A stretch of 64,000 bases of DNA from Clostridiales bacterium (GTDB taxonomy: Bacteria; Bacillota; Clostridia; Saccharofermentanales; Saccharofermentanaceae), in contig JAFWDK010000022.1 of the NCBI GenBank assembly GCA_017513085.1, positions 32,001 to 96,000 of the forward strand. The letters are read 5' to 3'. Both the position numbers and the translations under genes were made by a program. The notes beneath the pieces are model-generated. The model was given only the letters and a program-made list of their open reading frames with translations. It was not told the DNA's origin and ran no database searches. Positions 1 through 33,327 of this stretch are shown one piece after another (the first letter of the stretch is position 1; every line of letters begins with the position of its first letter).

Positions 1-2
1 AT

Positions 3-323
3 GTCCCGATCGAATACAGAAACCGTAAAGCAATCTCTTTTTTCCAGGATGTGTTGCGTTCCCATGAAGCTTTTTCTATAGACGAAGCAATAGAACTTTA
101 TGAATCTGAGCTCAGACTCAATCCGGCTTTGGCAGACCGTCAAAGTCCTGAGCAGCTTCAACAACAGCTTGCCCAGACTGCCCTTCTGCCACAGGGAGAT
201 GACGATCTTATGTCGCGTGCCCGCAATGCCATCGAATACATGGGCGGCATAAAGATATTCGCATTTATAACTGCACTTGTATTTCTTTCCTTTATTGTCA
301 CCGGTGTGATTGCAGGTATCTGA
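3..323 (+). CDS. hypothetical membrane protein, 5'-truncated at window edge
   Basis: Frame is open from position 3 (VPIEYRNRKAISFFQDVLRSHEAF...) to TGA 321-323. C-terminal hydrophobic helix. Stop lies 2 nt before the nrdG ATG. Confidence 0.7.
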   Translation, partial: VPIEYRNRKAISFFQDVLRSHEAFSIDEAIELYESELRLNPALADRQSPEQLQQQLAQTALLPQGDDDLMSRARNAIEYMGGIKIFAFITALVFLSFIVTGVIAGI

Positions 324-325
324 TC

Positions 326-1015
326 ATGAAGATTCACGGCTTGATGAAAATGACATTGTTGGACTTTCCCGGTAAAGTCGCCTGTACCGTATTTCTCGGA
401 GGGTGTGATTTCCGTTGCCCGTTCTGCCATAACTGGGAGCTTCTGGATCCGGAGGCGCCGGCTTTTATGGAAGATACGGAATTATTGCGCTTCCTGGATA
501 CAAGACACGGCTTACTGGATGGTGTTGTATTTACAGGAGGAGAGCCACTCCTTCGACGGGAGCTTCCTGATCTGATCAGATCGATCCGTGGAATGGGCTT
601 TCAAGTGAAACTGGATACTAACGGGAATCATCCGGACCGCTTGATCGAACTTGTAGAGGAAGGCCTTGTGGATTATGTTGCGATGGATATCAAGAATTGC
701 AGAGAACGTTATGGAGAGACCATAGGAATCCCGAATTTCAATGTGTCAAAAATTAATCAAAGTGTAGAATACCTTCTTGGCGGAAAAGTAGATTATGAGT
801 TCCGTACGACGGTCGTTTCGCAGTTCCATGACGAAGAATCCATGAAGAAGATCGGGGAATGGATCCATGGTGCGGACCGATACTTCCTGCAAGGTTTTGT
901 GAGCCGGGAGACTGTGCCGGACAAAGAGTTGAAGGCCTGTTCCAAAGAGCAGATGAATGCCTTTCTGGACATTGTTTCACCTTGTGTAAAAGAGGCTGCC
1001 CTGCGAGGAATTTGA
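326..1015 (+). CDS. nrdG: anaerobic ribonucleoside-triphosphate reductase activating protein (radical SAM)
   Basis: GCDFRCPFCHN CX3CX2C motif, TGGEP, DTNG, YEFRTT; adjacent to nrdD. Confidence 0.93.
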   Translation: MKIHGLMKMTLLDFPGKVACTVFLGGCDFRCPFCHNWELLDPEAPAFMEDTELLRFLDTRHGLLDGVVFTGGEPLLRRELPDLIRSIRGMGFQVKLDTNGNHPDRLIELVEEGLVDYVAMDIKNCRERYGETIGIPNFNVSKINQSVEYLLGGKVDYEFRTTVVSQFHDEESMKKIGEWIHGADRYFLQGFVSRETVPDKELKACSKEQMNAFLDIVSPCVKEAALRGI

Positions 1016-1047
1016 AATAAAAATCAAATACGTAATGAGATTGTAAG

Positions 1048-1094
1048 ATACAATATCTTGTGTTTTGCATTTTTTCGCTCACAAGATATTGACT
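1048..1094 (+). promoter_or_regulatory. tandem NrdR boxes overlapping the nrdD promoter
   Basis: ATACAATATCTTGTGT (1048-1063) and TCACAAGATATTGACT (1079-1094) match the NrdR consensus and are 31 bp apart. The second box overlaps -35 TTGACT (1089-1094); a TGnTATCTT -10 lies at about 1108-1116. Confidence 0.85.
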
Positions 1095-1200
1095 TTTTTG
1101 CCCGTAATGATATCTTTGTATATAACAGCCGTTAAGGGTAGCGAGCGATGGTTAAGAAGGGTGCCCATCGTGAAGTAATAAATCGGGAGGAAGGCTATTT

Positions 1201-3654
1201 ATGTATCGAGTATCAAAGAGAGACGGGGTAATCGTTGATTTTAATGTATCCAAGATCAGTGCAGCGATTGAGAAAGCGTTTATAGGATGTGACAAGCAGT
1301 ATCATCCGAGCGTGATCGATATGCTGGCGCTTCGCGTTACCAGTGATTTTGAAGATAAGATCAAAGACGAAGTGATTTCGGTGGAGGATATTCAGGATAG
1401 TGTAGAGAAGATCCTGTCCGAAGCAGGTTACTCTGATGTCGCGAAGGCATATATCCTTTACAGAAAACAGCGTGAGAAGATCCGTAATGTTAGAAATACG
1501 ATGTTGAACTATAGAGACATCGTGGACAATTATCTGAAGATCAACGACTGGCGTGTTAAAGAGAACTCTACCGTTACCTACAGCGTAGGCGGACTCATTC
1601 TCTCCAACTCCGGTGCCATTACGGCGAACTACTGGCTCTCTGAGATCTATGATGAAGAAATCGCAGAAGCGCACAGAAGCGCGGCGATCCATATCCACGA
1701 CCTGAGCATGCTGACAGGTTATTGTGCGGGATGGTCTCTCAAGCAACTGATCCAGGAAGGTCTTGGCGGCGTAGTCGGAAAGATCACTTCTTCTCCGGCA
1801 GGACACCTGTCCACATTGTGCAACCAGATGGTCAACTTCCTCGGCATCATGCAGAACGAGTGGGCCGGCGCACAGGCTTTCTCCTCTTTCGATACTTATC
1901 TGGCTCCTTTCGTTAAGATCGATAATCTTTCCCAGAAAGAAGTTAAGCAGTGCATCCAGTCTTTTATCTTTGGTGTTAACACACCTTCAAGATGGGGTAC
2001 ACAGTCTCCGTTTACCAATATTACCCTTGACTGGGTCGTTCCGAGAGATATGAAGGATGAGCAGTGCTGGGTAGGCGGCAAACAGGTCGATTTCACCTAT
2101 GGTGAATGCCAGAAAGAAATGGATATGGTCAACAAGGCATTTATCGAGATCATGATCGAAGGTGATGCCAATGGCCGTGGTTTCCAGTATCCTATCCCGA
2201 CATACTCTATTACCAGAGATTTCAACTGGGATGAAACAGAAAACAACAAACTTCTCTTTGAAATGACAGCTAAGTACGGTACTCCATACTTCTCCAACTA
2301 CATCAATTCCGACATGGAACCGAGTGATGTTCGAAGCATGTGCTGCCGTCTGAGACTGGATCTTCGCGAACTTCGCAAGAAGTCCGGTGGTTTCTTCGGT
2401 TCCGGCGAATCTACGGGTTCTGTTGGTGTAGTTACCATTAACCTGCCGCGTATCGCTTATCTGGCGGCAGATGAGACAGATTTCTTTAAGAGACTCGACA
2501 GACTCATGGATCTGGCAGCAAGATCTCTGAAGACAAAGAGAACGGTTATTACGAAACTTCTTGATACAGGTCTGTATCCGTATACGAAGAGATACCTCGG
2601 CACTTTCGATAATCACTTCTCAACGATCGGTCTTATCGGCATGAATGAAGTCGGACTGAATGCGAAGTGGCTCCGTAAGGATCTTACTCACAAGGAGACT
2701 CAGGATTTCGCTGCAAAAGTACTCAATCACATGAGAGACAAGCTCAGTGACTATCAGGAGAAGTATGGTGACCTTTATAACCTCGAAGCAACTCCGGCTG
2801 AGTCCACAACATACAGATTTGCCAAGCACGACAAGGAGCAGTTCCCGGATATTATTACAGCTAATGAGAAGGGCACACCTTATTACACCAACTCTTCTCA
2901 CTTGCCGGTAGGCTATACTGAGGATATCTTCTCTGCTTTGGATGTACAGGATAACTTGCAGACACTGTACACATCCGGTACTGTATTCCACGCTTTCCTT
3001 GGCGAGAAGCTTCCGGATTGGAAGGCTGCAGCTACTCTGGTACGTAAGATTGCCGAAAATTACAGATTGCCATACTATACCATGTCTCCGACATATTCTG
3101 TATGCAAGAACCATGGTTATATCACCGGCGAAGTTTTCGAGTGCCCGGATTGCGGAGGACGTACTGAGGTATATAGCCGAATCACCGGTTACTATCGTCC
3201 GATTCAGAACTGGAACGATGGCAAAGCACAGGAATATCAGGATCGTAGAGAATATGATATTGAGCATAGCTGCCTTTGCCACAGTGGTCCGATTACCTGT
3301 GTAAACAGCAATGAAGTGGAAGAAGCAGAACGCAAGGCATCCTCCGGTGCAGAAGAAGTGATCAACGTAACCGAGGCTCCGAAGCCGGCGGTTTCCGAAA
3401 ACGAGGGAACGGTTTTCCCGATCATGTACGTGAAAGATCACTGCCCGAAGTGCAAGGGTGCTGAGCAGAAGTTCAAGCTTGCCAAGGTACAGTACACAAT
3501 GGTGAATTGTTCCCAGAATATGGATGTGGCAAGAGAGATGAATATCCTGCAGACACCTACCATCATTGATGCAGACGGAACGAGATATGTTGGCGATAAC
3601 GCTGCATCCGAGTGGCTCAAGGCTCATTCTGAGAAAGTATCTACGGGAGTATAA
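1201..3654 (+). CDS. nrdD: class III (anaerobic) ribonucleoside-triphosphate reductase with N-terminal ATP cone and C-terminal glutaredoxin-like domain
   Basis: ATP cone (VSKRDG...AYILYR), YCAGW, SMCCRL, EATPAES, zinc site CKNH...CPDC, glycyl-radical loop YSRITGYYRP, then a CPKC...QTPT redoxin domain. Confidence 0.96.
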   Translation: MYRVSKRDGVIVDFNVSKISAAIEKAFIGCDKQYHPSVIDMLALRVTSDFEDKIKDEVISVEDIQDSVEKILSEAGYSDVAKAYILYRKQREKIRNVRNTMLNYRDIVDNYLKINDWRVKENSTVTYSVGGLILSNSGAITANYWLSEIYDEEIAEAHRSAAIHIHDLSMLTGYCAGWSLKQLIQEGLGGVVGKITSSPAGHLSTLCNQMVNFLGIMQNEWAGAQAFSSFDTYLAPFVKIDNLSQKEVKQCIQSFIFGVNTPSRWGTQSPFTNITLDWVVPRDMKDEQCWVGGKQVDFTYGECQKEMDMVNKAFIEIMIEGDANGRGFQYPIPTYSITRDFNWDETENNKLLFEMTAKYGTPYFSNYINSDMEPSDVRSMCCRLRLDLRELRKKSGGFFGSGESTGSVGVVTINLPRIAYLAADETDFFKRLDRLMDLAARSLKTKRTVITKLLDTGLYPYTKRYLGTFDNHFSTIGLIGMNEVGLNAKWLRKDLTHKETQDFAAKVLNHMRDKLSDYQEKYGDLYNLEATPAESTTYRFAKHDKEQFPDIITANEKGTPYYTNSSHLPVGYTEDIFSALDVQDNLQTLYTSGTVFHAFLGEKLPDWKAAATLVRKIAENYRLPYYTMSPTYSVCKNHGYITGEVFECPDCGGRTEVYSRITGYYRPIQNWNDGKAQEYQDRREYDIEHSCLCHSGPITCVNSNEVEEAERKASSGAEEVINVTEAPKPAVSENEGTVFPIMYVKDHCPKCKGAEQKFKLAKVQYTMVNCSQNMDVAREMNILQTPTIIDADGTRYVGDNAASEWLKAHSEKVSTGV

Positions 3655-3655
3655 T

Positions 3656-4567
3656 ATGTACGATATTATTGTAGTCGGCGGTGGACCTGCGGGTCTCACC
3701 GCCGCTATCTATGGACGGCGAAATGCAAAAACAGTCCTGGTGATTGAGAAATCTGTCTTTGGAGGACAGATCGTGAATTCTCCTAAGGTGGAGAATATTC
3801 CGGGTTTTGATTCTATTAGTGGAGATGAGTTCGGCGATAAGCTTCTGGAACAGGCAATGGGACAGGGCGCGGAAGCTACGATCGAGGATGTGACCGGCAT
3901 TGAAAAGAAAGAATCCGGCTTTATCGTATCTACAGCTGACGGGTCTTCTTATGAAGGAAAAACCGTTATTCTTGCAACGGGTACTACACATAGAACGCTT
4001 GGGCTTCCGGGTGAAGATGACCTGATTGGGAACGGAATCAGTTTTTGTGCAGTTTGCGATGGAGATTTTTACCGGGATAAGACCGTGGTCATGGTAGGTG
4101 GCGGAAACTCCGCTTTTGTTGAATCGGCTCTGCTGGTAGGTATAGTGAAGAAACTGATCATTCTGCAGGATCTTCCGAAGTTTACGGCTGATCAGAAACT
4201 TCAGGATCAGGTTCTATCTAAGGGAGACGTGGAAACACATGTCGGAACCAAGGTACTTGCTTATGAGGTTTCCGAAGATGGTGTGCTTACCGGCGTTACT
4301 TACGAAGAAGCAGGCCAGAGAAGAACAGTTGCCTGTGACGGAGTATTCCTTGCGGTCGGACTGGTACCTGAGAATACTGCTTTCGGTGAATGGGCACAGT
4401 TGGATGAGAGAGGATACTTCATACCGGAAAATATCTGTCATACTAAAACTCCCGGCATATATGTAGCCGGAGACTGCTGCCAAAAGACTTTGCGCCAGGT
4501 AACAACGGCCTGTTCCGATGGTGCATATGCAGCGATCAGCGCTTGTGATTACCTGAACGATCACTGA
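3656..4567 (+). CDS. trxB: thioredoxin-reductase-family FAD-dependent disulfide reductase
   Basis: MYDIIVVGGGPAGLTAA, ATG motif, active-site FCAVCDG, GGGNSA, YVAGD. Start moved to ATG 3656, 1 nt after the nrdD stop. Confidence 0.88.
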   Translation: MYDIIVVGGGPAGLTAAIYGRRNAKTVLVIEKSVFGGQIVNSPKVENIPGFDSISGDEFGDKLLEQAMGQGAEATIEDVTGIEKKESGFIVSTADGSSYEGKTVILATGTTHRTLGLPGEDDLIGNGISFCAVCDGDFYRDKTVVMVGGGNSAFVESALLVGIVKKLIILQDLPKFTADQKLQDQVLSKGDVETHVGTKVLAYEVSEDGVLTGVTYEEAGQRRTVACDGVFLAVGLVPENTAFGEWAQLDERGYFIPENICHTKTPGIYVAGDCCQKTLRQVTTACSDGAYAAISACDYLNDH

Positions 4568-4653
4568 CAGACAAACGCCTTTACCTTAGTCAATTACATG
4601 CTTCCATGGAATGTAGTATAATATACGATGGGTTTGACTGAGGAGGGCGGAAA

Positions 4654-7032
4654 ATGAAGCCGGGATATAGACGTGCAGCAGCGGCCTTACTGGTTATTTC
4701 CATACTGTTTTCGCTGACTGCATGTAAAAAGACGAAGAAGACCTTTTCAAAAGTCGTAAAAGAAGACGACCCGTATTTTGATGTGCAGGAAATAGAATTA
4801 AAACCACGTCTTAATACGGATGATTATACATGCGATTTACATGATGCAACAATTATCGGAGATTATATTGTAACCAATGGTAATATTTTTCAACGCAATC
4901 TGACGTCGGATGAGATCGTATCCCCTTTTTTTCAAAACTTTGTGGCAGTATTTGACTGCAATGGTGAGATGATCTCAATGGTTCCGAACGACCTCAATAC
5001 AGAAGTTGAGAATATCTTATGTGGTGCCAATAATGAAATCATGATCTTGTATTGTGATTATGCGCCGACAGCGAACGGGATAGATGAATTAAACGAAGTT
5101 TCCCGGCATCTTTGCGAGATTACACCTACTGGCGAAGTAGTCAGAGATATTCCATTGATGCTTGATGATATGAAGACTTGGTCGATAGGGTTCGGGTTTA
5201 TGGAGGACGGAAATATCCTTGTAAAAGGAATAGACATGTTGTACTGCATAAACAAGTCCGGAGAAATACTGTGGTCGACGGAGTGTATAAATCAGGATTT
5301 TACCAGTTACGACAATGGTCTATATTATGATGGAAAAGAATGGTATATCGGGGGACTGTCATTCGATTCAGATTATGAGATCTCGGAATGCTTTTTCCAA
5401 AAGATCGATATTCAGAATCAGACTATAAGCAAGGAACATATTCCAAATACTGATGTGTTCTCAGAAAGGATACATCTTTCGGACGGTTATTATTCTAAAG
5501 ACATGAGTGGTCTTTACAGGGTGGATCTGTTGAGCGATAAGAAAGAGGAAGTGATCAGTTGGAACAGTATTGACTATAACTACCTCAAGTTTTCGGATAA
5601 CGCAATCAAGGTCATATCTGATAATGAGATTTATGCATGTGTTTCCGAGAACGTGGAGTTGCCTAACGAATCCTATTTTGAAAAGAATTACTATGGGCAG
5701 ATCAAACTTGTAAAAATGACACGCGCGGCTAAAAATCCGCATGCCGGAAAAGCACTGATCACTATTGGTCTTTTTGAGAATAGTTACCAGTCTTTTTTTG
5801 ACTATATAGTCCGATACAATACTGTGCCGGATGGTCTTGCCAGAATTGCTATCCGATTTTATGACAATCACTATATGGATGTCATGTACAAAGGAGAAAA
5901 GAATAGTGTTTCCACTATTGATCAGGTATATAACGAAATGCTTTCCGGAACAGGACCGGATATCCTAATGGATTTTTCCGAGTACGGTAGATTTAATTCG
6001 GACAAGATCCTTCTGGATCTCAATTCTTTTATCGATGGGGAAAACGGATTAAATAGAAGCGAATACTTCAACAATGTATTCCGGGCATTTGAAGTAAAAG
6101 GGAAAATGTACCAGATCCCGGTCTGCATAGATATAGCCGGATATGTGGCAAATGGTGATTTGATCGGAACCAGGACCGGTTGGACTTGTTCCGAGTTCGA
6201 TCAGGTAGTCGGAAAACTTCCGGAAAGTGTGGAGGTTTTTGAATATACTACGCATGAGAACCTTCTTTCGATAATCGTCTCCAATTCTATGAATAGTTTC
6301 ATCGATTACGAGAAAAAAGAAGTCTTCTTCGATGGAGAAGAATTCAAGCAAGTTCTGGAAATCGCAAAAAAATACGGATGTGATAATGATTCTGGTGGTG
6401 AATCGTTCATGCCGGACCTTAGTGGAGATCACCCGGCTGATGAAACCGAAAGGAAAAAGATCGAAGATGGAAAACTGGCGCTGGTAAGTACATACATCTA
6501 CAACCTGACACAGTTTATTGTCAACAGAAGATTATGTAATCAGAAAGCTATCTTTGTCGGATATCCGTCTGAAGACGGAAGCGGCATGTCTGCCCGAGCG
6601 AGAATGACTTTTGGAATTTCTGCATATAGTGATTATTCAAAAGAAGCATGGGACTTTATCCGTTTTATGTTTAATGATGAGGAACAAGTGACTCATTCCC
6701 AGTTTTTTTCATCTATTCCGTTGTCAAGAACGGCATTTGAAAAGTGTATTGATGACGAGATCAAATCCAATCTTCAGTTAAAAAAATTTCTTGAAGAAGT
6801 GAATTTGGAGATTCCGGAGATGGTAATGGTGGAATATACGGAAGAAGATAAGACAGCCTATAGAAAACTGGTCGAAAATGTCAGTACGATCTACTTAACA
6901 GATTTAGAGATCATGAGTGTGATCATGGAGGAGTCAAAAGCATATTTCTATGACGATAAAGACATAGAAGATGTGGTAACCAAAATTCAGACGTCTGCCA
7001 CAAATATCGTACAAGGACGAGATAAGGGATAG
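4654..7032 (+). CDS. extracellular solute-binding lipoprotein (large N-terminal beta-rich region plus sugar-binding-type SBP domain)
   Basis: Lipobox LTAC; GPDIL, LLDL, GKMYQIP, EAWDFIRF motifs of family-1 SBPs; RBS GAGGAGG. Confidence 0.8.
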   Translation: MKPGYRRAAAALLVISILFSLTACKKTKKTFSKVVKEDDPYFDVQEIELKPRLNTDDYTCDLHDATIIGDYIVTNGNIFQRNLTSDEIVSPFFQNFVAVFDCNGEMISMVPNDLNTEVENILCGANNEIMILYCDYAPTANGIDELNEVSRHLCEITPTGEVVRDIPLMLDDMKTWSIGFGFMEDGNILVKGIDMLYCINKSGEILWSTECINQDFTSYDNGLYYDGKEWYIGGLSFDSDYEISECFFQKIDIQNQTISKEHIPNTDVFSERIHLSDGYYSKDMSGLYRVDLLSDKKEEVISWNSIDYNYLKFSDNAIKVISDNEIYACVSENVELPNESYFEKNYYGQIKLVKMTRAAKNPHAGKALITIGLFENSYQSFFDYIVRYNTVPDGLARIAIRFYDNHYMDVMYKGEKNSVSTIDQVYNEMLSGTGPDILMDFSEYGRFNSDKILLDLNSFIDGENGLNRSEYFNNVFRAFEVKGKMYQIPVCIDIAGYVANGDLIGTRTGWTCSEFDQVVGKLPESVEVFEYTTHENLLSIIVSNSMNSFIDYEKKEVFFDGEEFKQVLEIAKKYGCDNDSGGESFMPDLSGDHPADETERKKIEDGKLALVSTYIYNLTQFIVNRRLCNQKAIFVGYPSEDGSGMSARARMTFGISAYSDYSKEAWDFIRFMFNDEEQVTHSQFFSSIPLSRTAFEKCIDDEIKSNLQLKKFLEEVNLEIPEMVMVEYTEEDKTAYRKLVENVSTIYLTDLEIMSVIMEESKAYFYDDKDIEDVVTKIQTSATNIVQGRDKG

Positions 7033-7064
7033 AAAAAAAGAGCGGCTCAGGTCGCTCTTTTTTT
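7033..7064. terminator. bidirectional intrinsic terminator between convergent genes
   Basis: A7-GAGCG...CGCTC-T7 hairpin overlapping the GGDEF gene stop. Confidence 0.75.
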
Positions 7065-8876
7065 AGTCTTTTTCTCAATATACATGATTTTGTCGGCTTT
7101 GTGCATGCATTCCATAAGATTTTCCCAGCTTGAAACATTGCAACTGCCGATACTGGCACCGATGGAGTATTCTGTTTTTTGTTCCTCGTTGGCTTTCTTG
7201 ATAGCACTTCTGAAAGCTCTGGTAAACTGCCCCAGCCGGCCCGGATTGTCAAGAATCAATACAGCTTCAAATTCGTCCCCTCCCATTCTGGCAGCAATTT
7301 CTCTTTCGTTTACAGAAGAATTCAGACAGTAGGCTATAGATTTCAATGCTTCATCTCCTGCGGAATGACCAAAAGTATCGTTAATGTATTTCAGACCATC
7401 CATATCTATGCTGACTACTGCAATGGAGTATTTTTCCGATGTGCCATCGTGGAAAAGCTCCGAGATCATCTTCTCAAAACCGCGCCGGTTATATAGCCCT
7501 GTCAGAGCATCTTTGATATACAGATCCATGATGTTGTTGGCTTCCGTGAGTCTCTCGTAAAGGCGGAGACGGTTGATCGTTTGTCCCATAAGCACCATGA
7601 TGAATTCCAGTTTTTCATCGATGAAAAAGTTGGCATTATCATCGACAGAGAGCATCGCGTAGCCATACACTTCACTTTTATAGAAGATCGGAAGGAAAAT
7701 GTGGATGCCCGGAACCTGATCGTCCAGTTCTTCCGGGAGAAGAAGCGAAGACGGGAAGTGGATGTCTGCAGTGACTCCTTTTCCATCGGTAAGATATCCG
7801 GTAACTCTTCTGTCGTTTTCACAGAACTCTACAAAACAACATTCATCAAAAATGCCGTATTCCTGGAGATTCAAAAGCGTAAGCTTTACGTTATCCGGAA
7901 AGGTCATCAGATCTTCATATTCGGATTCCATAAGTACGAAAGCCCGGGTCTTGTCATAATAGTTTCTCTGTGCTGCTTCAAGAAGACGATGCATCTCGTC
8001 CGCATCCTGCTTCTCCATGATCTCGTTGGTACTTTCGCGAAGAAGCAGGCGACCGGGAACCGTGATGGTCATATCAATGGTTTCACCTCTGTTTACTCTT
8101 TCCAGACAATCAATAGCTGCACTGACCAAAGTTGATTCTGGAATATCCGATGTGGTCAATGACGGAGAGTATAGAGCAGATGCTGCCAGATTATCGACTC
8201 CTGTGATAAAGGTGTCCTTCGGGATGGAATATCCTCTCGCGATCAGTTCATCCATCAGAGCAAGAGCCATGTAGTCATTCGAGCAGATGATAGCCTTGGG
8301 AAGAGTGCCATCTTTCTTGGTAAAAAAATCAGCAGTTTGCGGGCCCTGGGTAGTCCAGTAATTCCCGTGAAAAATCATGTCCTCCCGGACTTCGTATCCT
8401 GCTTCATGCATGGCATCTTCAAACCCTGCTCTTCGTTCGGCAGAGTCTTTCAGTTCATCACGTCCGGTGACAAATCCGATATCGTCGGTGCCACACTTCT
8501 TGATCACATATTCAGCTATATCATGCATGATGATCCGGTTATCCGGAACGATACTGTAAAAACCTTGCTCGTCTACTCGGATGCTTACTGTCGGAGGGAG
8601 ATCCGCAACTGCTATCAACCTGTCCAGGAGTTCTTTATCCAGACCGGCATGACTAAGAGTATCTGAACATAATATGATTCCGTCGTACATAGTAAGAGGG
8701 GGCAAAGAAAGAATTCCCCGTAGTCCCTGGGCATGAAGAGGGTTCTCACTGGGAACGGAGCAATTTCCGAAAATATCGATCCGATGCCCGTTTTCCAGTG
8801 CTTTTTTCTTAAGGTTCGATATGATCAAAGATGAATAATCCCGATACATATCCCCGATAAATGCACAAATCCTCAT
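7047..8876 (-). CDS. diguanylate cyclase with N-terminal LacI-type sugar-binding domain
   Basis: ERRAGF, AIICSNDYMA, ITGVDN, PSLTT (LacI/PBP1 fold); DALTGLYNRRG, NDTFGHSAGD, RMGGDEF. Confidence 0.88.
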   Translation of the reverse strand: MRICAFIGDMYRDYSSLIISNLKKKALENGHRIDIFGNCSVPSENPLHAQGLRGILSLPPLTMYDGIILCSDTLSHAGLDKELLDRLIAVADLPPTVSIRVDEQGFYSIVPDNRIIMHDIAEYVIKKCGTDDIGFVTGRDELKDSAERRAGFEDAMHEAGYEVREDMIFHGNYWTTQGPQTADFFTKKDGTLPKAIICSNDYMALALMDELIARGYSIPKDTFITGVDNLAASALYSPSLTTSDIPESTLVSAAIDCLERVNRGETIDMTITVPGRLLLRESTNEIMEKQDADEMHRLLEAAQRNYYDKTRAFVLMESEYEDLMTFPDNVKLTLLNLQEYGIFDECCFVEFCENDRRVTGYLTDGKGVTADIHFPSSLLLPEELDDQVPGIHIFLPIFYKSEVYGYAMLSVDDNANFFIDEKLEFIMVLMGQTINRLRLYERLTEANNIMDLYIKDALTGLYNRRGFEKMISELFHDGTSEKYSIAVVSIDMDGLKYINDTFGHSAGDEALKSIAYCLNSSVNEREIAARMGGDEFEAVLILDNPGRLGQFTRAFRSAIKKANEEQKTEYSIGASIGSCNVSSWENLMECMHKADKIMYIEKKTKKRAT

Positions 8877-31950: not shown

Positions 31951-33327
31951 AACAATGTTCCGGATCCAGATCCCGCTTCTTACCAGAATAAAGCCGATGA
32001 GGCACTTGACGATCTCGAGTGAGCGGACGATGGCCACGAGCCATACAACATATATTGAGGTATAACGGCTTAATATAAAAGCAACCGGCACAGCGATGAC
32101 CCAGGTGTAGCAACTGTCGAAAAGCACTGTCACGAATGTGTTGCCGCCGGCGCGAAGTATAAAATACGACGCGTGGGTATACGAACAGAAGGGCATCATG
32201 ATGCCGGCAATGATGATGAAATAAGTAGCTGTGGTACGTATCGCGCCGGAAGTATTATAAAGATACGGAAATACCGGAGAGATCACGACCATGAGGACGC
32301 CGAAGATCAACCCGCAAAGAACAGTGAAGAGACGCATCTTGTACGCGTCTTTTTTTGCCCGATCCAATTGCCCGCTTCCTAGGATATGACCCATTACGAT
32401 ACCCACGGCTTCACCCATGGCGATAAAAGCAACGCCCATGAGATTCCAGATGGTGGATTCAATGTTCAGAGACGCCACAGCATCCAGACTCCGATAAGAG
32501 TAGCACTGGTTCATGGTCGTGGTGCCCAGCGCCCAGAGCGACTCGTTAGCCATAAGAGGCAGTGCTTTGAACGTAAACTTTCTGACCATTTCACGTGGAA
32601 CGGTCAACCTGGCAAAAGCGCCACGGATAAACGGGAAGGTGTCGGCGTGAAGACCGGTATAGACGATGAGGATCGCAAGTTCTACGAAACGGGAAATAAC
32701 AGTGGCGATAGCGGCTCCGGTCGCGCCCAGTGCCGGAAGACCGAGATATCCGTAGATCAGGAGCGTGTTGCCGATAAGGTTTACGAAGATCGCGAATAAA
32801 GAAGCAAACATGGGCACTTTGGTCTGTCCCTGATCTTTAAGGGTACCGGAGTATGCCTGCGTAAGTCCGATCGGGATGAGGCTGATGAGGATGATACGGA
32901 TGTAGTCGATACCGATCTTCAGGATCTCTTCCGCATCGGCCGGATCACCTTCGCCTTGAAGGAAAAGACGGATCAGGTAAGGGGAAAAGAGCGCGAAGAT
33001 CAGGACACAGAGCGCGGAAAGAAGCGTATTGGCTACGATCTTGAAACGGAAAGAATAACGGATTCCATCTGTATCGCCTTTGCCGTGGTATTGCGCGGTA
33101 AAAATGCCGACCCCCGCCGTAGCACCGAAAATGACAAGGTAGAAGATAAAGATCAGCTGGTTAGCGATGGCCACGCCGGAAAGCGCGTTCGTACCCACCC
33201 GTCCGATCATGAGATTGTCCAGCAGGTTTACGAAATTGGAAATACCGTTTTGCACCATCATCGGGATGGCGATCAGCAGAAGCCTCGAGTAGAAGCCCTT
33301 ATTCTCTTTGGTCAGATCCGTTGTCAT
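31945..33327 (-). CDS. MATE family efflux transporter
   Basis: IAIPMMVQN..SNFVNLLDNLMIG, AQYHG, GATGAAIATVISR; ATG 33327 behind AAGGAGA. Confidence 0.9.
   Translation of the reverse strand: MTTDLTKENKGFYSRLLLIAIPMMVQNGISNFVNLLDNLMIGRVGTNALSGVAIANQLIFIFYLVIFGATAGVGIFTAQYHGKGDTDGIRYSFRFKIVANTLLSALCVLIFALFSPYLIRLFLQGEGDPADAEEILKIGIDYIRIILISLIPIGLTQAYSGTLKDQGQTKVPMFASLFAIFVNLIGNTLLIYGYLGLPALGATGAAIATVISRFVELAILIVYTGLHADTFPFIRGAFARLTVPREMVRKFTFKALPLMANESLWALGTTTMNQCYSYRSLDAVASLNIESTIWNLMGVAFIAMGEAVGIVMGHILGSGQLDRAKKDAYKMRLFTVLCGLIFGVLMVVISPVFPYLYNTSGAIRTTATYFIIIAGIMMPFCSYTHASYFILRAGGNTFVTVLFDSCYTWVIAVPVAFILSRYTSIYVVWLVAIVRSLEIVKCLIGFILVRSGIWIRNIVK

Follow-up and report, generated by a model that had tools for sequence, protein, structure and literature searches.

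The DNA analysed here (the window) is a 64,000-nucleotide (nt) stretch, positions 32,001 to 96,000 of the forward strand of contig JAFWDK010000022.1 in GenBank assembly GCA_017513085.1, from a Clostridiales bacterium of the rumen or gut that GTDB places in the Saccharofermentanaceae. Near its start lie three genes: nrdG, for a radical-SAM activase; nrdD, for an anaerobic (class III) ribonucleotide reductase (RNR) fused at its C terminus to a redoxin domain; and a trxB-type gene for a flavoprotein disulfide reductase, hereafter the reductase. We consider the locus to be, probably, an operon under NrdR control that encodes a thiol-reduced class III RNR with a built-in electron carrier. A first-pass annotation had taken the fusion and the reductase for a two-protein RNR independent of formate and of free thioredoxin; the features it reported were confirmed residue for residue, and its interpretation was supported in part. 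The features are listed below by window position, with lengths in amino acids (aa).

326..1015, + strand: nrdG, radical-SAM activase of NrdD, 229 aa (NCBIfam TIGR02495 NrdG2, Pfam Radical_SAM)
1048..1063, + strand: NrdR box 1 (ATACAATATCTTGTGT), two mismatches to the assumed consensus ACACWATATATWGTGT
1079..1094, + strand: NrdR box 2 (TCACAAGATATTGACT), four mismatches, 31 nt after box 1, overlapping a -35-like TTGACT
1201..3654, + strand: nrdD::redoxin fusion, 817 aa (Pfam, NCBIfam, alignments with solved chains); ATP-cone at residues 3-92, class III RNR core at residues 121-685
2338..2349, + strand: finger loop M380-C381-C382-R383, within S379-M-C-C-R-L (alignment)
2785..2802, + strand: E529-A-T-P-A-E534, E529 being the extra active-site glutamate (alignment)
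3187..3189, + strand: Gly663 of R-I-T-G-Y, the glycyl-radical site (alignment)
3262..3411, + strand: flexible linker, residues 688-737, rich in A, E, P, S and T
3412..3636, + strand: thioredoxin-fold redoxin domain of ~75 residues, about 738-812 (Pfam, AlphaFold2, Foldseek)
3442-3453, + strand: C748-P-K-C751 of the redoxin domain
3550-3558, + strand: cis-Pro-type Q784-T-P786 of the redoxin domain
3656..4567, + strand: trxB-type flavoprotein disulfide reductase, 303 aa, with FAD (flavin adenine dinucleotide) motif G8-G-G-P-A-G13 (profile matches, alignments)
4046-4057, + strand: redox site C131-A-V-C134 of the reductase
4097-4114, + strand: G148-G-G-N-S-A153 of the reductase
4166-4186, + strand: Q171-D-L-P-K-F-T177 of the reductase

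The NrdD core, its redoxin tail and the NrdR boxes

By profile, the nrdD product is an ATP-cone class III RNR, with every score above its curated cut-off: 646.8 bits for the NRDD domain (Pfam PF13597, cut-off 26.2), 1145.8 bits for NCBIfam NF006126 (cut-off 548) and 528 bits for TIGR02487 (cut-off 326). The protein has the glycyl-radical motif and an adjoining radical-SAM activase gene, the combination that marks a class III NrdD; the nrdG product matched TIGR02495 NrdG2 in NCBIfam at 218.6 bits (cut-off 131) and Pfam Radical_SAM as well. Conservation was read from 110 full-length fusions of this tail type (tail-only search, 148 protein clusters among 215 candidates). The M-C-C-R finger loop, R-I-T-G663-Y, and the C-P-K-C and Q-T-P of the tail were invariant in all 110, and E529 was present in 109. 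Among related loci, this region was located in 81, and 77 of these have SMCCRL or TMCCRL as their finger loop. In the alignments, the Thermotoga maritima NrdD (4coi) has S-C-C-R as its finger loop and Glu opposite E529; in the solved chain 8p23 the corresponding residues are M-G-C-R and Leu. The second finger-loop cysteine and the active-site glutamate that mark thiol-dependent NrdD (NrdD2 of Wei et al. 2014) are both present here. Met380 is also present and invariant, which places the protein outside the "thioredoxin only" subclades as delimited by Burnim et al. (2022).

The core is followed by a linker that varies in length and sequence among the fusions, the distance from Gly663 to the CxxC being mostly 67-106 residues, and that has a predicted local distance difference test score (pLDDT) below 50 in the AlphaFold2 model. 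In the protein studied here, linker residues 691-700 (window 3271-3300) read C-L-C-H-S-G-P-I-T-C and so hold three cysteines and a histidine. The idea that the linker holds a metal site or conserved cysteines for shuttling was rejected, since C691, C693 and C700 are particular to this genome and not conserved among the 110 aligned fusions; they are unlikely to act as a shuttle pair.

In the tail itself, the blocks P-x-M-Y-V-K-D-H-C-P-K-C-K-G-A-E-Q and Q-T-P-T-I-I-D-x-D-G-T-R-Y were essentially invariant in 110 of 110 fusions, and the CxxC and cis-Pro were retained in 29 of 29 tails from across the GTDB family. AlphaFold2, run with an alignment of 29 tails, predicted a strand-helix-strand-helix-strand-strand-helix arrangement with a pLDDT of about 92 over the domain. 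Foldseek searches with this model returned glutaredoxins, thioredoxins, NrdH 4fiw (template-modelling [TM] score 0.73) and BC3987 3zij (TM 0.72). The Pfam Glutaredoxin profile PF00462 matched residues 742-783 at 24.9 bits, a marginal pass of its cut-off of 22.9. The best NCBIfam match, the YruB family TIGR02196, scored 23.1 bits, far under its cut-off of 88.55, and the tail also fell under the cut-offs of the Uxx-star and mycoredoxin profiles. An NrdH-redoxin, as defined in PMC3720550, has C-[VMI]-Q-C and an nrdHIEF operon; the motif here is C-P-K-C, and the genome has no class I RNR. These data indicate that the tail is a conserved thioredoxin-fold redoxin, as the first-pass annotation had proposed in calling it glutaredoxin/NrdH-like, and in the model it is confidently folded as a minimal thioredoxin fold of the size of NrdH, Cp9 or BC3987. 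Selenocysteine-containing tails were considered and rejected, the in-frame TGA/TAA codons in four tail matches being natural stop codons. The 99.4%-complete genome contains no homologue of gshA (PF04262) or gshF (TIGR01435), gshB and glutathione import lying outside this search, and a glutathione route to the tail is therefore unlikely.

Two NrdR boxes precede nrdD, in the tandem arrangement first annotated; they were scored against the consensus ACACWATATATWGTGT, which we take to be that of NrdR. Box 1 is one of four sites with two or fewer mismatches to it in the 3.06-Mb genome, and NrdR itself is encoded at C14. The other three such sites lie at C1:18716, C17:15652 and C23:39167. Of 61 related loci, 55 have box-like sites upstream of nrdD, and 33 have pairs spaced by 30-33 nt. 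Over 200 shuffles, the mean was 4.8 loci with boxes and the largest number 12, and pairs never occurred; a control on coding sequence yielded 0 of 61. A promoter-like site consists of TTGACT at 1089, a 16-nt spacer and TATCTT ending at 1116, with an upstream TG. The gene nrdG lies before the boxes and not behind them, 185 nt from nrdD, and no NrdR box with three or fewer mismatches was found ahead of it; in 55 of 65 related loci nrdG is likewise upstream of nrdD on the same strand. Among public libraries, contigs of two metatranscriptome runs from one study (X1 and X3) cover nrdD and trxB with few differences. None of the listed X1 and X3 contig pieces bridges the nrdD-trxB junction by at least 31 nt on both sides, and contigs cannot show a transcript; one record that does bridge the junction comes from run X2, whose status as RNA is a guess, and such libraries may hold DNA. 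A search of Rfam over positions 1-6000, at E-values up to 1, gave 0 matches, and with them no riboswitch or known RNA before nrdD.

The reductase and its linkage to the fusion

The reductase gene starts at ATG 3656, one base after the nrdD stop codon (TAA, 3652-3654), with GGGAG 7-11 nt upstream, and its product carries the CAVC site, all in agreement with the first-pass annotation. The TrxR (thioredoxin reductase) profile TIGR01292 matched over positions 1-300 of 300 at 285.5 bits, under its equivalog cut-off of 343.45. The AhpF profile TIGR03140 scored 211.2 bits against a cut-off of 502.9 and was covered over its C-terminal 300 positions only. The best solved relatives were TrxRs (7jyp, 213 bits, 4.8e-62), with AhpF structures at 153 bits (6.6e-44). 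Among structures of FFTR (ferredoxin-dependent flavin thioredoxin reductase), 6gna-6gnd scored 93-98 bits (6gnc, 1.3e-25) and 5j60 scored 128 bits (3.1e-36); an excerpt of PMC8154056 identifies 6gnc and 5j60 as ferredoxin-dependent FFTRs. FFTRs are recognised by clustering with one another and by loss of both NAD(P)H motifs; the reductase shows neither trait. It ends 6 residues past the last invariant alignment column. On these matches it is a low-molecular-weight thioredoxin reductase, and the earlier label "AhpF-like" fits no more than a short local motif, as the TrxR profile and the solved TrxRs both outscore their AhpF counterparts.

The reductase was aligned with TrxB and AhpF from E. coli K-12. 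Its L170-Q-D-L-P-K-F-T-A178 stands opposite I-H-R-R-D-G-F-R-A in TrxB and L-E-F-A-P-E-M-K-A in AhpF, so that H175, R176, R177 and R181 of TrxB align with Q171, D172, L173 and T177, and the three 2'-phosphate arginines are replaced by D, L and T. The AhpF Glu aligns with Q171 and not with D172; the AhpF string quoted in the first-pass annotation agrees with the K-12 protein. The G-G-G-N-S-A dinucleotide motif is intact, and invariant among homologues, and the H-R-R-x-x-x-R 2'-phosphate site is absent, as had been noted. Among the matches listed, all 120 of the 120 closest homologues (69-100% identity) have Q-D-[LM]-x-x-F-T-A, and 7jyp reads V-Q-N-L-P-Y-L-T-A at this site.

Relatives of the reductase were scanned with one genome per species, and the 80 closest loci returned came from rumen and gut Clostridiales, Lachnospiraceae, Eubacterium, Erysipelotrichaceae, Oscillospiraceae, Acutalibacteraceae and Coriobacteriia metagenome-assembled genomes (MAGs), with three cultured Lachnospiraceae also among the sources. 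An NrdD with a CxxC tail ended between -8 and 191 nt before the reductase in 67 of the 80, and in 8 more the nrdD-redoxin gene lay 0.2-1.2 kb upstream. The remaining 5 were cut by contig ends, and two of these still show H-C-P-K-C. All 75 judgeable relatives thus lie downstream of an nrdD-redoxin fusion. The cofactor motif was Q-D or Q-N in all 76 relatives in which it was readable. Each of five other genomes searched whole contains a second TrxB; in Lachnospiraceae AC2031, NE2001 and LC2019 this is HRR-type and adjoins a WCGPC thioredoxin gene, and in an Erysipelotrichaceae MAG it reads I-R-R...R. The reductase lineage is therefore, in general, a second, nrdD-linked TrxB paralogue beside another TrxB, which supports a coupled pair of NrdD and reductase.

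In a Coriobacteriia MAG (L147/L148, G146:C164:3170-4043), the second TrxB, not linked to nrdD, is split over two overlapping frames, a state that a frameshift, pseudogene formation or an assembly error could explain. MAGs labelled Erysipelotrichaceae and Coriobacteriia (L105-L107, L126, L127) hold the module of Q-D reductase and nrdD-redoxin too, at 55-64% identity, and this spread over phyla hints at horizontal transfer of the whole module.

Structure prediction of the reductase in complex with the tail gave a score of 0.48, against 0.01 for the best control, with runs agreeing in at least 67% of contacts and a partner pLDDT of at least 81. The mark used is reached by 116 of 157 solved complexes and by 2 of 215 mismatched pairs; 18 of the 157 solved complexes, and likewise both passing mismatches, reached it with scores of 0.60 or below. 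A TrxR-Trx complex is already solved, so the pass may reflect no more than likeness to it, and the prediction lends weak support to binding.

NrdD is the only RNR found in the 3.06-Mb, 99.4%-complete assembly: tblastn returned one NrdD, and the PF02867 profile gave 0 matches, so that RNRs of class I and II are absent. Among its other redox proteins are two free WCGPC thioredoxins, encoded at C4:112841 and C36:59187, and a small redoxin with CPYC. A second TrxB was sought and rejected, the other TIGR01292 matches being longer GltD/NfnB-like and DUF1667-like flavoproteins without C-x-x-C-D-G. No remnant trxB was found beside either free thioredoxin gene when the neighbouring open reading frames (ORFs) were compared with the genome's TIGR01292 and tblastn reductase matches. 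Because the genome and the genus lack a canonical NADPH-type TrxB, the reductase probably also serves the two free thioredoxins. The fusion is widespread in the GTDB family, and nearly every one of its 142 genomes has a single TrxB match. Motifs were read from a sample of reductases (3 of g1, 6 of g5-g7, 12 of g8) and from 29 tails, with the following result by genus.

g1 (own genus): trxB directly after nrdD-tail in 22 of 24, the other 2 at contig ends; reductase Q-D; tail H-C-P-K-C
g5: trxB directly after nrdD-tail in 2 of 2; reductase H-R-R-x-x-F-R-A; tail T-C-P-N-C
g6: trxB directly after nrdD-tail in 5 of 5; reductase H-R-R-x-x-F-R-A; tail T-C-P-N-C
g7: trxB directly after nrdD-tail in 5 of 6; reductase H-R-R-x-x-F-R-A; tail T-C-P-N-C
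g8: trxB directly after nrdD-tail in none; reductase H-R-R-x-x-F-R-A; tail T-C-[PA]-[NK]-C or A-C-P-N-C

Tail and reductase thus co-vary: in the own genus the HCPKC tail goes with the Q-D reductase, and in g5-g7 an HRR enzyme occupies that operon position and the tail is TCPNC. In a single FastTree run, the Q-D/Q-N enzymes formed a clade of 19 tips (support 0.95) that was sister to an HRR clade holding the nrdD-adjacent enzymes of g5-g7. The joint clade had 41 tips and a support of 0.98, with the g8 enzymes outside it. Our reading is that the nrdD-linked TrxB lineage is old, that one branch of it lost the NADPH site, and that only this branch is left in the own genus. An adjoining trxB is not required for the fusion, which in g8, the largest genus of the family, is found with trxB at 17-52 kb or on a different contig. 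In 24 g8 genomes (e.g., G100:C11, G025:C2 and G108:C8), trxB lies upstream of nrdD-redoxin on the same strand, at 17-27 kb in 22 of them, which suggests a conserved larger synteny block.

The proposed electron route and competing explanations

We propose that electrons would pass from a reductant, most likely NADH, to the FAD of the TrxB-type enzyme and on to its C131/C134 pair. From there they would reach C748/C751 of the redoxin domain, which a flexible stretch of ~50 residues joins to the end of the NrdD core, and the redoxin domain would in turn reduce the disulfide that arises with each turnover in the active site of NrdD. This disulfide would involve the additional cysteine of the finger loop, C381 or C382, and E529 would be the residue that handles protons. 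We infer every electron-transfer step, the identity of the donor and the dispensability of formate. A precedent is the double-Cys NrdD of Neisseria bacilliformis, which uses thioredoxin (Wei et al. 2014, as relayed in excerpts of PMC9669993 and PMC4390871).

As donor to the reductase, NADH is the best single guess, although we put its chances at slightly short of even. The dinucleotide motif is kept, the three 2'-phosphate arginines are gone and one of them is now Asp, and NADH-preferring TrxRs without HRR are known, namely those of T. maritima and Desulfovibrio vulgaris (TR3; PMC5627308, excerpt) and the TrxR-like Cp34 of Clostridium pasteurianum, described as NADH-dependent (PMC3720550, excerpt). 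The NADH proposed in the first-pass annotation is plausible on these grounds, but the donor is something that we infer, and several observations weigh against it. The motif is Q-N, with no acidic residue, in 7 of the 76 relatives in which it was readable, and 7jyp, the best solved relative, also has Asn at the Asp position. HRR has been lost as well in enzymes with ferredoxin, F420 or unknown donors (PMC5627308, excerpt), and the Clostridia survey of Anjou et al. (2024) classes TrxB without both motifs as "probably FFTR" (PMC10880999, excerpt). It is rather unlikely that the reductase is not run by NADH at all and draws on reduced ferredoxin or flavodoxin, as in FFTR, on another donor, or still on NADPH. 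Such a choice would suit organisms of this kind, since low-potential ferredoxin is plentiful in such anaerobes. It would also suit the Asn found at the Arg176 position in the seven relatives and in 7jyp, and the missing HRR...R, a feature shared with FFTR, DvTRi, TaTrxR and DFTR (PMC5627308 and PMC10880999, excerpts). The same alternative has to contend with the invariant G-G-G-N-S-A, as clostridial FFTRs are described without either NAD(P)H motif (PMC10880999, excerpt), with the distance of the solved FFTRs (93-128 bits, against 213 for 7jyp), with the lack of a C-terminal extension like the one stacking on the flavin of the Gloeobacter enzyme (PMC8154056, excerpt), and with the existence of the NADH-preferring enzymes named above.

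A thiol-reduced RNR with a coupled reductase has two further explanations to face, one concerning formate and the other the tie between the two genes. The loops of the N. bacilliformis and T. maritima enzymes are S-C-C-R without Met (PMC9669993, excerpt), and Met380 is kept here; according to Burnim et al. (2022), 83% of double-Cys class III sequences keep this Met and so have the parts for formate or thioredoxin (PMC9669993, excerpt). The genome also makes formate, with pyruvate formate-lyase (1190 bits, over its cut-off) and its activase both present. Given the M-C-C-R loop and this lyase, formate is a possible reductant for NrdD, and the formate independence asserted in the first-pass annotation is not sustained. 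Formate could even be the catalytic reductant, the tethered redoxin and the reductase serving to keep active-site or zinc-site cysteines reduced, to re-activate the enzyme after oxygen or to support activation, or the enzyme may be dual and use thiols only when formate is scarce. The retention of Met380 in all fusions would fit, and an activating role of thioredoxin has been reported for the E. coli enzyme (PMC4390871, excerpt). We nonetheless judge this distinctly unlikely, because the features tied to formate-independent chemistry, the second finger-loop cysteine (110 of 110) and E529 (109 of 110), are conserved, and because the reductase lineage is linked to the fusion over several families and, by record labels, two phyla, which fits stoichiometric supply better than repair. 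As for the tie between the genes, profile and tblastn searches of the genome gave no TrxB-like gene other than that of the reductase, which is accompanied by the two free thioredoxins, so its adjacency to nrdD could reflect a housekeeping role. Nearly all genomes of the family have one TrxB, and in g8 the fusion occurs with a trxB that was adjacent in none, on the same contig 17-52 kb off in 24, on other contigs in 37, and without a match at the threshold in 6; the relatives are moreover akin, so the linkage counts are not independent events. That the reductase is a plain housekeeping enzyme and a chance neighbour of nrdD, with no special tie to the tail, is still unlikely. Three cultured Lachnospiraceae carry a Q-D enzyme linked to nrdD in addition to a canonical trxA-trxB pair, linkage to nrdD holds for 75 of 80 relatives with none seen elsewhere, and the nrdD-adjacent enzymes of g1 and g5-g7 group together in the tree, apart from g8. 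The word "dedicated", used of the reductase in the first-pass annotation, holds for the lineage but probably not for this genome, where a housekeeping role and an nrdD-coupled role are compatible.

Returning to the NrdR-controlled, thiol-reduced RNR, we offer one extension of it tentatively, as a conjecture that has the odds against it. A TrxR lineage may have switched to NADH (or to ferredoxin or flavodoxin) and co-evolved with the tethered redoxin into an insulated wire, letting M-C-C-R RNRs, which are very common, run without formate; in the own genus it would have displaced the canonical NADPH-type TrxB, so that the whole thioredoxin system depends on it. If this were true, the sister genera with an NADPH-type enzyme at the same position would represent a natural cofactor swap within one conserved operon.

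Flanking genes, spread and known systems

Directly after the reductase gene lies an ORF of 792 aa (4654-7032, + strand) with a lipoprotein-like start, a hydrophobic stretch followed by L-T-A-C. It is preceded by a promoter-like site at 4593-4622 and is probably a separate transcription unit. On the opposite strand, an ORF of 609 aa (7047-8876, - strand) has, judged from its translation alone, a GGDEF-type diguanylate cyclase region at its C-terminal end (R-M-G-G-D-E-F) and a long N-terminal part resembling a periplasmic-binding fold of the sugar-binding or LacI type.

A profile of 29 tails was run against 300 evenly drawn genomes of the class, each at least 90% complete. It matched in 95 of the 300, and in 56 the match fell in an open frame of 595-868 aa, which agrees with the length of an NrdD carrying a tail; R-I-T-G-Y stood upstream in each of the three of these 56 that were inspected by eye. 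Many strict anaerobes, the present one among them, depend on class III RNR alone for their deoxyribonucleotides. The module, which by its sequence features combines a thiol-dependent class III RNR, an RNR-fused redoxin and an NADPH-independent TrxR paralogue, is common in gut anaerobes. That a redoxin is fused to the RNR and has a reductase of its own is genomic evidence for protein thiols as reductant of M-C-C-R enzymes. NrdG, NrdD-redoxin and the reductase make up a compact three-protein system for a direct test of the reductant, and the reductase would add a specialised TrxR branch in gut and rumen bacteria. Two useful contrasts come with this genome: in its own genus the special reductase is the sole TrxB, and the sister genera carry an HRR-type enzyme in that same place.

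Our literature searches found no biochemical study or reconstitution of the nrdD-redoxin and reductase pair, in line with the first-pass annotation, which knew of none, and titles and abstract openings revealed no study of an operon of nrdD with trxB and nrdG. The nearest RNRs are the NrdD proteins of N. bacilliformis and T. maritima (4coi/4u3e), which share the double-Cys loop and the extra Glu and for which reduction by a protein dithiol has been proposed. They have S-C-C-R without Met, a free thioredoxin and an NADPH-dependent TrxR, whereas the present system has M-C-C-R, a fused redoxin and a reductase without HRR. A fused redoxin domain was shown to serve as reductant of its own RNR in the Grx::ATP-cone::NrdB protein of Facklamia ignava (PMC6187632). 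That fusion is class I, N-terminal on the radical subunit and glutathione-dependent; the one described here is class III, with a C-terminal tether, no gshA or gshF found and a TrxR-type partner. A single Glutaredoxin:NrdD protein, from Lachnospiraceae bacterium TWA4, is listed by Rozman Grinberg et al. (2018) (PMC6187632, text and supplementary table).

On the side of the reductase, the Cp34/Cp9 system of C. pasteurianum pairs an NADH-using, TrxR-like flavoprotein with an adjoining gene for a Grx-like/YruB-type redoxin (PMC3720550, excerpt). Its redoxin is free and its acceptor is a peroxiredoxin. The T. maritima TrxR and D. vulgaris TR3 are, like the reductase, of low molecular weight and without HRR; they use NADH, and the excerpted text of PMC5627308 describes no link to nrdD for them. 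AhpF (E. coli, 1hyu/4o5q) belongs to the same flavoprotein family, uses NADH and has a local likeness in G-I-V-x-x-[LV]-x-[IL]-L ... A-D-Q-x-L-Q-D, but the reductase is 29% identical to it and lacks its N-terminal double-thioredoxin-fold domain, and the L-Q-D stretch occurs in ordinary TrxRs too. FFTR shares the TrxR fold, the anaerobic hosts and the loss of HRR, and is often a second TrxB copy in Clostridia (PMC10880999, excerpt); it is far from the reductase in sequence and is described in the same excerpt without GxGxxA, a motif that the reductase keeps.

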